From positions 1-19,954 of the IMG/VR virus record IMGVR_UViG_2671180903_000004: a stretch of DNA of 19,954 nucleotides; one strand, 5' to 3'. How positions within the stretch are numbered: position 1 is the stretch's first letter; every line of letters begins with the position of its first letter. Below are positions 8,173 to 15,483 of this stretch, piece by piece. The translations under genes were made by a program, and so were the position numbers. This DNA comes from a virus (taxonomy: Duplodnaviria; Heunggongvirae; Uroviricota; Caudoviricetes). The notes below the pieces were generated by a model. That model was not told where the DNA came from. It ran no database searches and worked only from the letters and a program-made list of their open reading frames with translations.

Positions 8173-8568
8173 ATGGCAAAAGTATTTACACCAGAAGAGC
8201 GGGAAGAAGTGAAGGCGCGCATTGTGGAATTCGTGCGCCTGAGCGGACGAGAAACTTTTCGACAACTGGCAGATAAAACGGGTGTCAGTAAGACCGCTAT
8301 TCGTCGTTTATCTGGTGCGCTTGCGGCCAGTGGTGATGTCTGGCTCTGTGATTGCGGGGTATTTCCATCAGAGCAGGCGTATCGCGTATGGCGTAAGACA
8401 CCGGAGAAGGCTGCTGACCCGACACTGATTCGAAAGTTACCAGACGGAGAAATACGCCGCTACGACAGGCGCCTGAATATAATCTGTCGCGAGTGCCGGA
8501 AGAGCGAAGCTATGCAGCGTGTACTGGCATTTTATCAAGGAAATGTTAGGTATTTTAGACGTTACTAG
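8173..8568 (+). CDS. Hypothetical HTH protein with C-terminal Cys cluster (131 aa)
   Basis: ATG 8173 with GGAGG SD 7 nt upstream (track start 8158 is TTG); HTH-like FRQLADKTGVSKTAIRRL; CDCG...CRECRK. Confidence 0.55.
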   Translation: MAKVFTPEEREEVKARIVEFVRLSGRETFRQLADKTGVSKTAIRRLSGALAASGDVWLCDCGVFPSEQAYRVWRKTPEKAADPTLIRKLPDGEIRRYDRRLNIICRECRKSEAMQRVLAFYQGNVRYFRRY

Positions 8569-8721
8569 ATTAAAGAGCATTAGTTCAGATGTGAATTGAC
8601 ATTTTCATGGCGCAGGGTAGAGCCAGCGTGGTTGTCCGCTTTGCGTCAAAACCAGATATTACCAGATTTAGACATATATTCCCGATAGCCCTGCTCTGAT
8701 GCTACACTCTGTGCTATTTTC

Positions 8722-9408
8722 ATGACCCCAATAAAAATATTTATGACTATTGCTGATTTCAAACGGCCTAAATTGGAACTCCCAAACGGGGCAAACAAAC
8801 TACTACTGCACTCTTGCTGTGCTCCATGTTCCGGTGAAGTGATGGAGGCGCTTCAGGCCTCGGGAATCGACTACACCATCTTTTTCTACAACCCGAACAT
8901 TCATCCTCAGAAAGAGTATTTAATTCGTAAGGATGAAAATATTCGCTTTGCTGAACAACACGGCGTGCCGTTTATCGATGCTGATTACGACACCGACAAC
9001 TGGTTTGAACGTGCCAAAGGAATGGAATGGGAGCCTGAGAGGGGGATCCGTTGTACCATGTGTTTTGACATGCGTTTTGAGCGGACAGCGTTGTACGCTG
9101 CTGAAAATGGTTTCAGTGTGATCAGTAGTTCACTGGGCATTTCACGCTGGAAAAATATGCAGCAGGTTAACGAGTGTGGGCGGCGAGCTGTTGCGCATTA
9201 TCCGGGTATGGTGTACTGGGATTATAACTGGCGCAAGCAGGGCGGCTCGTCCCGTATGATTGAAATCAGCAAGCGCGAAAAATTCTATCAGCAGGAATAT
9301 TGTGGCTGTGTGTATTCTCTGCGCGATACCAATCTACACCGCAAATCTCAGGGACGCCCTCTTATCAAAATTGGCCAACTCCACTACGGAAAAGAAGAGA
9401 AGGAGTGA
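8722..9408 (+). CDS. queH: QueH-like protein (DUF208, epoxyqueuosine reductase family), tentative
   Basis: Motif [11 protein letters not shown] near the N-terminus plus further Cys pairs (CTMC, CGC), length 228 aa, consistent with recalled DUF208/QueH features. Alternative start at 8743; neither has a strong SD. Own ~150-bp upstream intergenic region. Confidence 0.6.
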
Positions 9409-9439
9409 TTTTATGGATCACCTTTCTGATTGATTTCAT

Positions 9440-9645
9440 ATTGGCGAGGTGACGTGAGTTAAGTAGAATGGCTGCGGGTGCTTGAGGCTATCTGTCTCAG
9501 GCATGAACACTGAAAGGCAGACAGAGAAAAGCCCCAGTTAACATTACGCGTCCTGCAAGACGCTTAACATTAATCTGAGGCCCAATCTATGTCTCACAAA
9601 TGTAGGTTAGCCTCTTACGTGCCGAAAGGCAAGGAGAAGCAGGCT
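9440..9645 (+). promoter_or_regulatory. hok-type mRNA leader with expected antisense (sok-like) region
   Basis: Long untranslated leader upstream of hok; GGCGAGGTG at ~9446 is partly complementary to the 3' CACCTC element, as in hok mRNA 5'/3' pairing. Antisense RNA not directly identified. Confidence 0.4.
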
Positions 9646-9801
9646 ATGAAGCAGCAAAAGGCGATGTTAATCGCCCTGATCGTCATCTGTATTACCGTCG
9701 TAGTGACGGCACTGGTAACGAGGAAAGACCTCTGCGAGGTACGAATCCGAACCGGCCAGACGGAGGTCGCTGTCTTCGTAGCCTACGAATCTGAGAAGTA
9801 A
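9646..9801 (+). CDS. hok: Hok/Gef-family type I toxin (51 aa)
   Basis: MKQQKAMLIALIVICITVVVTALVTRKDLCEVRIRTGQTEVAVFVAYESEK matches the Hok/Gef family closely; AAGGAG SD 9 nt upstream. Confidence 0.85.
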   Translation: MKQQKAMLIALIVICITVVVTALVTRKDLCEVRIRTGQTEVAVFVAYESEK

Positions 9802-9905: not shown

Positions 9906-10259
9906 TTATTTAGTGCTAATACATGATTTAATTCCCTGAATCCTCTTGCTTTTCCCATTGGTGGGGTCTAAGACCCCTCGAAGGGAATAAAAATCAATGA
10001 TAGTAGAACCATCTGCCAACTTATAAATGTCGGCATTATCTGCAACCGCTAATACGCTGTAATACTTGCCAATTTTTTGAGACGTGATAGTGGCTAAGAG
10101 AGGTGTACGCTGCCACTCACTGAGAATGCATTCTTGTATTTCTTGTGGTGGAGAATTTGTTTTGAACGAGATAATAACATTTTGTTCTTCTCTGTAGTTA
10201 TAAGGGTTGACGCATCCTGAAATTGCAAAAACCAATAGAAAACAAATTGTTCTATTCAT
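9906..10259 (-). CDS. Putative lipoprotein (117 aa), AT-rich cargo gene
   Basis: Signal peptide with lipobox FAISGC, Val at +2; markedly AT-rich gene and flanks; convergent with hok and on the opposite strand to the surrounding nin-like genes. Confidence 0.65.
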   Translation of the reverse strand: MNRTICFLLVFAISGCVNPYNYREEQNVIISFKTNSPPQEIQECILSEWQRTPLLATITSQKIGKYYSVLAVADNADIYKLADGSTIIDFYSLRGVLDPTNGKSKRIQGIKSCISTK

Positions 10260-10320: not shown

Positions 10321-10620
10321 CTATAAAAAGTCAGATTCATAACTTTGCCCTCCATGGTAAATGCCAGCGATAAAGACTTTATTGCCATCAACGGCAAAAG
10401 CAATAATCGTTCTGTGGCGGAAGTGAGTTACTCGCATTCCCTGGCGAATATCATCGCGTTTATTGCCCCGATGTGGGAATGTAGAAAACCCATCAAGATA
10501 ATCAAGAAGCGCATTGGCATAATTGTCAGCAATGACGCTTCCTGCTTTCTCCGTTATATATCCGTGCAGGTTTATTATCTGCTGTTCGGCCTCGGGGGTA
10601 ATGATGACTTCAAATGTCAT
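10321..10620 (-). CDS. parE: ParE/RelE-superfamily toxin (99 aa)
   Basis: Starts 5 nt after the antitoxin stop; C-terminal RVTHFRHRTIIAFAVDGNKVFIAGIYHGG resembles ParE; typical size. Confidence 0.75.
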   Translation of the reverse strand: MTFEVIITPEAEQQIINLHGYITEKAGSVIADNYANALLDYLDGFSTFPHRGNKRDDIRQGMRVTHFRHRTIIAFAVDGNKVFIAGIYHGGQSYESDFL

Positions 10621-10625
10621 GCAGA

Positions 10626-10883
10626 TTACTTCCCGGATCGAATCGCGGCGCGAACCTGTGAAATGGAGCGTCCGTTGTTTGGATTTTCGCGGATAGAATC
10701 AAGAGAGGGGGCGGCTGAATGCGTTAACCACGCTTCGATTGCTTTATCGCGCTCATTCAGTGCGCGAAGCCCTTCACGAATGACCTCGCTTTCTGAAGCA
10801 TAGGCACCGGAAGCCACACGGGCGCGCACCATGTCAGCCATCTCGTTAGTTAATGTAATGCTGAATTGTTGGGTTGTACGCAT
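10626..10883 (-). CDS. parD: ParD-family (RHH) antitoxin (85 aa)
   Basis: Internal ATG at 10883..10881 with GAGGT SD 6 nt upstream; motif ITLTNEMADMVRARVASGAYASESEVIREGLRAL resembles ParD/CopG antitoxins. Confidence 0.75.
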   Translation of the reverse strand: MRTTQQFSITLTNEMADMVRARVASGAYASESEVIREGLRALNERDKAIEAWLTHSAAPSLDSIRENPNNGRSISQVRAAIRSGK

Positions 10884-11018
10884 GGTAAACCTCACGGAGT
10901 AGGATAGAACACTATTCGATGATAGCACGCTGCCTGTTGACGACAACAGAAATCAGAGACAATATTGCCGCACGCCAGCTTGAACAACTGGCACCTGCTG
11001 CGCCAGCAGAGAAAACAG

Positions 11019-11297
11019 ATGGCGCACGATACCAAACCATACAATTCTGATAATTCAGCCGTCTTTGCCAGCAGGCACGGGCGGCGTTCTCATGCATTCA
11101 AATCTGACTGGTATCAGCACGACCCCTGCACCGAAGAACAGGCTGAATGGCTGATTCAGTGTTACCGCAGGCGCGGATACGAGGTTAAGAAAGCCCTCAC
11201 CCTCGATTATCGTCACTGGATAATCTACGTCAGACTCCCTTATTCCGAACGCCCACCGCGTCCGTCCCGCACATATCAGCAACGCATCTGGAGGTAA
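11019..11297 (+). CDS. Hypothetical protein (92 aa)
   Basis: ATG 11019 chosen inside the track ORF; weak RBS; stop immediately precedes the next gene's start. Confidence 0.45.
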   Translation: MAHDTKPYNSDNSAVFASRHGRRSHAFKSDWYQHDPCTEEQAEWLIQCYRRRGYEVKKALTLDYRHWIIYVRLPYSERPPRPSRTYQQRIWR

Positions 11298-14942: not shown

Positions 14943-15018
14943 GGCCCTTTAGCTCAGTGGTGAGAGCGAGCGACTCATAATCGCCAGGTCGCTGGTTCAA
15001 ATCCAGCAAGGGCCACCA
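14943..15018 (+). tRNA. tRNA with CAT anticodon (Met or Ile2/lysidine type, ileZ-like)
   Basis: Hand-folded cloverleaf: acceptor GGCCCTT/AAGGGCC, D-arm GCTC...GAGC, anticodon loop CTCATAA, T-arm GCTGG-TTCAAAT-CCAGC, encoded CCA. Confidence 0.85.
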
Positions 15019-15025
15019 TCACATA

Positions 15026-15099
15026 CCGCCATTAGCTCATCAGGAAAGAGCGCCAGCCTTCGAAGCTGGTTGCGCGGAGTTCGGGTCCCCGAAGGCGGT
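15026..15099 (+). tRNA. tRNA-Arg(TCG)-like, possibly degenerate
   Basis: Anticodon arm CCAGC-CTTCGAA-GCTGG is clean, but hand-folding shows an A-A mismatch in the acceptor stem, an A-C mismatch in the T-stem, T-loop TTCGGGT, C at position 1 and no encoded CCA. Confidence 0.5.
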
Positions 15100-15115
15100 T
15101 CATTATCTGTATCCT

Positions 15116-15192
15116 GCGTTGTTAGCTCAGCCGGACAGAGCAATTGCCTTCTAAGCAATCGGTCACTGGTTCGAATCCAGTACAACGCGCCA
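15116..15192 (+). tRNA. tRNA-Arg (anticodon TCT)
   Basis: Acceptor GCGTTGT/ACAACGC, anticodon loop CTTCTAA, T-arm ACTGG-TTCGAAT-CCAGT, discriminator G, encoded CCA. Confidence 0.85.
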
Positions 15193-15232: not shown

Positions 15233-15428
15233 AAATGTCTCACAATTCAGGCGGTTGACTGTTGTCTGGTTTGCGGGGAGTTTGTTAAAAGAAACTGGCA
15301 TGGTGAATCCCCCTGTGCGGAGGGGCAATCAGCGAGTAGGTATATGGGATAATCGCGGATTCAGGTGCTGGTACTGAATTCACCGGGAGGCACCCGGCAC
15401 CATGCAATGGCACATAGCGCCACTCTCC

Positions 15429-15456
15429 AGCCCCTCTCCGGAGGGGCTGTTTATAT
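15429..15456 (+). terminator. Terminator-like hairpin (perfect 8-bp stem AGCCCCTC/GAGGGGCT, 4-nt loop) followed by a T-rich tract
   Basis: Stem 15429-15436 / 15441-15448, then GTTTATATTGATTTT; lies between the structured region after the tRNAs and the stop of the reverse ORF. Confidence 0.45.
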
Positions 15457-15483
15457 TGATTTTGTCAGATGTGAGTAAACTCC

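Follow-up and report, generated by a model that had tools for sequence, protein, structure and literature searches.

The DNA analysed here, a window of 19,954 nt, is part of a lambdoid prophage that carries queH, a gene whose product is a genuine QueH as judged by profile search, family cysteines, model fold and orthology. The gene travels as lone prophage cargo in a host, E. coli, that already has QueG: among 5426 complete E. coli genomes, the queH cassette occurs in 995 and queG in every one. This main reading had been put forward in a preliminary description of the same DNA and it stands after our analyses. We consider it reasonably likely that the gene is a true QueH orthologue, captured together with its promoter, that would provide B12-independent completion of queuosine (Q) in lysogens. 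The gene identity is not new, being already public through the RefSeq annotation. What has been under-described is that an enzyme of the tRNA branch of the queuosine pathway is a common and constrained cargo of E. coli lambdoid prophages, probably with a promoter of its own.

Family membership and start codon of the prophage QueH

The assignment to QueH/DUF208 made in the preliminary description was borne out by a full-length profile match. The match to Pfam PF02677 (QueH, formerly DUF208) scored 221.5 bits (E=1.1e-65), where the cutoff is 23.5, and took in positions 1-174 of the 175 in the profile. The family cysteines, in the numbering of the 221-aa protein, are C25, C26 and C29 (CCAPC), C104 and C107 (RCTMC), and C187 and C189 (YCGC). 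In an alignment with QueH from T. maritima, S. aureus, Listeria, Acinetobacter and three gut bacteria, all seven (CCAPC, RCxxC, YCGC) are kept, as is the NPNIHP motif, and this comparison of the cysteine ligands agrees with the proposed assignment. The cysteine motifs are also invariant across 35 clade members. The first motif is usually CCAPC in the diverse alignment, including in the prophage protein; the exception is T. maritima QueH (PDB 7LC5/7LC7/9DEU), which has CCAPD. PDB entries of the T. maritima enzyme include the C9S and D13N variants and a queuosine complex, so the CCAP(C/D) motif would seem to be functionally central. The CCAP(C/D), RCxxC and YCGC cysteines are said to be metal ligands in the T. 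maritima structure of Li et al. from 2021.

When the PDB was searched with the prophage sequence, only entries for T. maritima QueH, variants included, were significant (7lc5 and related entries, E=8e-22). An AF2 model built on the 35 clade members (pLDDT 77.5, pTM 0.79) gave the same answer: the best PDB matches were 7lc7/7lc5, with a target-normalised TM of 0.84, an rmsd of 2.6 A and E=5e-11, and the next structural matches, TtuA-type PP-loop enzymes, had a TM below 0.4. The prophage protein thus shares the full-length domain, the predicted fold, the cysteine motifs and the length of T. maritima and chromosomal QueH.

Annotation resources differ on this protein. RefSeq names the identical protein WP_000150294.1 'epoxyqueuosine reductase QueH', although no NCBIfam model matched the queH product at E<=0.01. 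The match to PHROG 3217 is very strong (E=2e-138), and that family is labelled 'unknown function'. A PADLOC search of the protein returned zero defence families at E<=0.1, and we rejected a defence protein as a candidate.

The preliminary description had spoken of a 228-aa protein with an HxCCAPC-type motif. The motif is indeed present in the ORF, but the length has to be corrected. An uninterrupted ORF, 8722..9408 on the plus strand, does encode 228 aa. However, when five divergent alleles were aligned, all shared the ATG at 8743, but the one at 8722 read ATT in the divergent E. coli ST70 allele. Orthologue starts fall at or downstream of the position of residue 8, and the RefSeq start corresponds to window position 8743. 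Because ATG 8722 is not conserved and ATG 8743 is, the alignment makes ATG 8743 almost certainly the real queH start, giving 221 aa, and the seven codons before it are probably an untranslated 5' leader (Table 1).

Table 1. Coordinates of queH, of its cassette and of neighbouring features (window positions unless a record is named)
Feature	Position	Strand	Basis or remark
queH CDS, 221 aa + stop	8743-9408	+	Epoxyqueuosine reductase QueH; start and name as in RefSeq
Seven-codon in-frame extension, probably leader	8722-8742	+	ATG 8722 lost in ST70; orthologue starts
TGCTACACT, putative extended -10-like promoter element	8700-8708	+	Begins 43 nt before ATG 8743
Mobile single-gene cassette	8650-9410	+	blastn breakpoints; ~90 bp promoter/leader + queH
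DUF977 gene, left neighbour, end of replication-region block	8158-8568	+	Pfam PF06163, E=7e-39
sok antisense RNA + mok/hok toxin ORF, commonest right neighbour	9476-9801	+	Rfam, Pfam; sok 9476-9651 (RF01794, 116 bits), Hok ORF 9589-9801 (HOK_GEF, E=8e-23)
DUF977-sok/hok slot	8569-9475		Window
DUF977-sok/hok slot, other loci	L003:3044-4393; L004:599-1933	-
DUF977-sok/hok slot, other loci	L009:4457-6096; L010:4433-6443	+
ParE toxin / ParD antitoxin pair	10321-10946	-	Pfam
DicF antisense sRNA	2661-2712	-	Rfam, 76.7 bits; early-left region
Three prophage tRNAs, anticodons CAT, TCG (Arg), TCT (Arg)	14943-15192	+
STnc100 sRNA	15269-15458	+	Rfam, 132 bits; directly downstream of tRNA cluster
QueH-encoding non-phage records in phage collection	L011 (CAKLQH020000001.1); L012; L013

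A single-gene cassette in a lambdoid cargo slot

The window covers the early/regulatory half of a mosaic lambdoid prophage. Its genes follow the order DicF, cI-like repressor, cro, YdaT, O-like protein, DnaC-like ATPase, DUF1627, DUF977 and queH, then sok/hok, ParDE (on the minus strand), DUF968, RusA, Q-like antiterminator and DNA methylase, and finally three tRNAs, STnc100, a SASA esterase and the lysis genes. The replication genes, which extend up to 8568, encode an O-like HTH protein, an IstB/DnaC-like ATPase and the DUF1627 and DUF977 proteins. The placement of queH between a replication module and toxin-antitoxin genes, as first described, is therefore correct, with DUF977 on the left and sok/hok and ParE/ParD on the right. 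The ParE/ParD pair is rare at this place, being found at 1 of 80 IMG/VR loci with identical QueH. Neither the 116-aa ORF at 9906-10256 (minus strand) nor the 110-aa ORF at 10965-11294 had a Pfam or PADLOC match. The DUF1627 protein (7387-8154, plus strand) gave weak PADLOC matches to CARF/Csa3-type winged-helix regions (E=2e-5 to 6e-4), which probably reflect only N-terminal HTH domains. No complete E. coli genome covers at least 80% of the window in one place, the best reaching 77% at 91.3% identity.

The cassette itself is about 750 bp long and ends 2 nt past the queH stop codon. In blastn comparisons, homology to phage mEp460 stops on the left at 8649 and homology to Tritos at 8660; on the right, all three phages compared (mEp460, Tritos and HannyBb) are homologous again from 9411. 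The stretch shared with HannyBb is 8627-9414, at 92.9% identity. DUF977 lies immediately to the left of queH at 74 of the 80 IMG/VR loci with identical QueH and sok/hok immediately to the right at 55 of them, while other cargo follows queH at 24. This other cargo includes Kiwa KwaA/KwaB and a Dcm + NgoMIV-family restriction pair, both directly 3' of queH, as well as a DUF1971 gene. Where queH is absent, the slot is occupied by PD-T7-1 in phage mEp460 (PADLOC E=4e-157) and by a PDC-S15 candidate in Tritos. Since defence genes fill the slot elsewhere and varied cargo follows queH, the gene is located at the edge of a lambdoid cargo/defence hotspot.

The queH cassette is present or absent as a discrete unit between conserved flanks, with breakpoints at ~8650/8660 and 9410 and varying right-hand neighbours, as is typical of a moron. 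It resembles the lambdoid morons found near hok/sok (PD-T7-1, Kiwa, R-M) in its slot, its sharp edges, its patchy presence and its apparently own promoter. Unlike the usual moron, it showed no terminator: our terminator scan found none after queH and detected none upstream. It also differs from the hotspot morons in its cargo, a housekeeping-type tRNA-modification enzyme and not a defence, toxin or virulence gene.

Upstream of queH, the sequence TGCTACACT fits the extended -10 form TGnTAnnnT. Its core is invariant in five prophage alleles, even where the sequence farther upstream diverges (ST70). Identical or near-identical elements (TGCTACACT, TGCTACAAT or TGCTACCCT) were found 42-44 nt before the start codon of chromosomal queH genes in Scandinavium, Kluyvera, two Enterobacter species and Symbiopectobacterium, with TGCTACA(C/A)T at -43/-44 and TGCTACCCT at -42. 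The element is present upstream of Erwinia queH as well, and the Scandinavium and prophage upstream regions have 13 nt (CTCTGATGCTACA) in common. We estimated the chance of TGnTAnnnT at a fixed position (within 1 nt) at ~0.003 per sequence. A strict generic sigma-70 scan called no promoter upstream of queH, where the -35 region is poor. Because a -10-like element occupies the matching position in prophage and chromosomal queH, comparison of these upstream regions suggests that the gene was probably captured with its native promoter, with TGCTACACT as putative promoter element.

The preliminary description had called queH a lone gene, with no dpdA or queCDE partner, and this was the case both in the window and in a complete related prophage. 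No TGT/DpdA, QueC, QueD, QueE, QueF or FolE was found by Pfam among the window ORFs, nor in the complete annotated 48-kb prophage with the same cassette at ompW in strain JE86-ST05 (NZ_AP022815.1). Dpd-type phage clusters likewise bring genes of the queuosine/deazaguanine pathway onto phages, but they combine DpdA with FolE/QueD/QueE/QueC, with or without QueF and others, whereas the prophage queH stands alone. A DNA-modification cluster was accordingly rejected as an explanation. The suggested link between queH and the rare-codon tRNAs of the prophage did not survive either. These tRNAs cannot be QueH substrates because none of their anticodons (CAT, TCG, TCT) is GUN, and we regard the association as coincidental. 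The CAT tRNA is called Met by ARAGORN, and the equivalent gene is Ile in RefSeq.

Origin, distribution and selection

QueH proteins of other Enterobacterales are 80-92% identical to the prophage protein, and their genes lie in non-phage contexts or have no phage flanks. The closest sequences in a 5.8-billion-sequence collection, at 78-90% identity, were annotated QueH from Erwinia, Gibbsiella, Photorhabdus, Providencia, Proteus, Sodalis, Ewingella, Rahnella, Dickeya and Serratia. We also compared 80 species representatives, one genome per species. After Escherichia albertii (100%), the best matches were Scandinavium (92%), Kluyvera (91%), Enterobacter (88-90%) and Symbiopectobacterium (87%), and phage flanks (DUF1627, DUF977, hok) surround queH in E. 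albertii only. In the E. albertii type strain, the identical QueH has the same kinds of neighbour genes.

Six contexts were inspected, and all were ordinary chromosomal surroundings without phage genes. In Erwinia, queH follows purL and precedes a two-component system (glrK-like), glnB, hmp and glyA; in Providencia it adjoins tmcA. QueH proteins from these two core chromosomal contexts are 84-86% identical to the prophage QueH. Non-phage neighbours were also found in Photorhabdus, Gibbsiella and Ewingella and on two metagenome/read-set contigs (90% matches). As its near relatives lie in ordinary chromosomal neighbourhoods, the prophage queH is, by sequence comparison, a recent and little-changed copy of a housekeeping enzyme. 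It shares the upstream -10 element of its nearest chromosomal orthologues, and differs from them in residing in a lambdoid cargo slot of a host that already has QueG.

Strains of ST131 and O157:H7 are among the cassette-bearing E. coli genomes (~18% of the complete genomes). In 985 of the 995 at least 80% of the cassette is covered, which we counted as complete; the cassette is usually single-copy, and 1015 of its 1018 places are chromosomal. The universal presence of queG confirms that the host normally has the cobalamin-dependent enzyme, as had been assumed, and for this reason QueH is redundant on paper in the carriers. Nevertheless, the reading frame is intact in all six translated alleles, and five distinct prophage alleles show dS up to 0.47, dN <=0.02 and dN/dS of 0.03-0.09. 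These substitution patterns indicate that prophage queH is under strong purifying selection. The low dN/dS at a dS of up to 0.47 suggests that the gene has been kept functional through a long residence on phages.

A tblastn search of 50,697 phage records gave 25 matches, among which HannyBb is the sole named, fully annotated phage isolate. Eighteen matching 'Bacteriophage sp.' faecal contigs are unannotated, and the three of them that we inspected are flagged UNVERIFIED. Three further records of the phage collection that we inspected (identities of 79% and 35-36%) turned out to be bacterial contigs, mislabelled or unverified (Table 1). One of these, 'Acinetobacter phage MD-2021a', is a 328-kb contig with the housekeeping genes soxR, tadA and cynX and not a phage; in that record the chromosomal QueH bears the label 'putative prophage protein'. 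The flag UNVERIFIED_ORG is attached to the QueH records from S. aureus and Listeria. Hutinet et al. (2019) reported QueA, QueG and QueH to be absent from the viruses that they analysed (PMC6884629), and our literature search found no paper discussing phage-borne QueH.

Possible roles of QueH in lysogens and in the phage cycle

We propose that a lambdoid phage captured queH with its native promoter from an Enterobacteriaceae chromosome, and that the gene now travels as a minimal single-gene moron in the variable slot bounded by the replication genes and sok/hok. In lysogens, QueH would convert epoxyqueuosine (oQ) into Q at position 34 of the host's Asp, Asn, His and Tyr tRNAs, and would thus duplicate the reaction of the host QueG without cobalamin. 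The prophage enzyme would be expressed from the -10 element. Because QueG needs cobalamin and E. coli does not synthesize cobalamin de novo, the benefit would lie in full Q modification when B12 or B12 uptake is limiting.

Prophage QueH shares its cell with E. coli QueG, and both presumably catalyse one reaction, the conversion of oQ to Q on tRNA. The two enzymes are unrelated in sequence and cofactor, and they differ in distribution, queG being core and queH accessory. According to PMC5372724 and PMC6461909, QueH takes the place of QueG as a non-orthologous, cobalamin-independent enzyme for the final reaction of queuosine synthesis. That this reaction is cobamide-dependent in E. coli/Salmonella is stated in the title of a 1988 paper by Frey et al., which PMC5372724 cites. 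That the step matters is suggested by two recent observations. S. aureus retains both reductases, whose expression profiles differ (PMC13443448), and Shewanella responds to phage infection with induction of queG and a higher Q/oQ ratio, with effects on biofilm and phage resistance (bioRxiv 10.64898/2026.03.05.709803).

Part of the evidence could be read in favour of a lytic-cycle function. queH shares its strand with the early rightward operon and its orientation with cro, the O-like and P-like genes, DUF1627 and DUF977; the interval from DUF977 to queH holds no terminator-like site. This arrangement speaks against the main reading, as do the negative sigma-70 scan, the poor -35 region, the lack of an NCBIfam match and the codon usage of the prophage genes, and queH could be expressed mainly by lytic read-through. 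In that case, delayed-early transcription from the rightward early promoter would supply QueH during infection, and conversion of oQ-tRNA to Q-tRNA would aid phage translation. The position of queH in a nin-like region upstream of the Q antiterminator, its presence in HannyBb, an isolated and viable temperate phage, and the rise of Q/oQ in infected Shewanella all fit such a role. We nonetheless hold it to be unlikely: the conserved native -10 element points to expression outside the phage circuit, and the prophage genes are not enriched in NAU codons. The fraction of NAT among NAY codons is an unremarkable 0.53 across the 17 window genes, without NAU bias, and on this ground a codon-bias rationale was rejected. 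The lytic and lysogenic roles are compatible and not mutually exclusive.

A role in phage conflict, in which an altered Q status of tRNA would shield the lysogen from superinfection or tRNA-targeting toxins, or would counter a host defence, appears quite improbable to us. It draws on the company that queH keeps, with PD-T7-1 or the PDC-S15 candidate in the slot of other phages and Kiwa or a type II R-M system after queH, and on the tie between Q levels and phage resistance in Shewanella. Yet non-defence cargo also occurs in hotspots, the product had no PADLOC match, it adds no domain to the ordinary chromosomal enzymes that it nearly copies, and there is no known mechanism for an effect of oQ versus Q on phages. 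The same closeness to chromosomal enzymes (80-92% identity, with all cysteines and purifying selection) also weighs against the new substrate that the preliminary description had offered as an option, and makes it hardly credible that QueH acts on a phage-DNA deazaguanine or another epoxide instead of tRNA oQ. It is true that queH is alone on the phage and that phages use deazaguanine pathway enzymes for DNA modification (PMC6884629). However, the window and the complete related prophage have neither a DpdA/TGT-like transglycosylase nor preQ0 synthesis genes, the very low dN/dS shows no sign of neofunctionalisation, and we found no report in the literature of oQ or Q in DNA, the derivatives listed in PMC6884629 being others.

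It may also be asked whether queH does anything useful at all, or hitch-hikes beside selected cargo. QueG covers the reaction in every E. coli genome, and no phenotype that sets E. coli cells with oQ-tRNA apart from those with Q-tRNA is known to us. A neutral passenger would however not be expected to keep an intact frame in 6/6 alleles, a complete cassette in nearly all carrier genomes and a dN/dS of 0.03-0.09 between prophage alleles at the dS reached here, nor to stay in place while its right-hand neighbours vary, and we judge this explanation very improbable.

How codons for Asp, Asn, His and Tyr are decoded depends in part on queuosine status, which has also been tied to biofilm, to virulence and, in recent work, to phage resistance. 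That queH is constrained although queG is universal suggests that in nature the conversion of oQ to Q can at times be the bottleneck, with cobalamin supply as the most plausible cause; if so, a mobile element changes the vitamin dependence of tRNA modification in its host. The role of queH on phages is so far unstudied, though the gene is publicly named, and a QueH function would be assigned by our reading to PHROG 3217 and to 'hypothetical protein' calls in phages such as HannyBb. A more far-reaching proposal, which we put forward as unlikely though worth stating, is that temperate E. coli phages carry out lysogenic conversion of the translation apparatus through captured queH, in that Q formation freed from cobalamin would shift the oQ/Q balance and so alter Q-dependent traits. 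If this were true, the shift, for instance at scarce B12, would alter NAU/NAC decoding, biofilm, or stress or phage resistance, and QueH would be the first functional phage-encoded enzyme that belongs specifically to the tRNA branch of the pathway.
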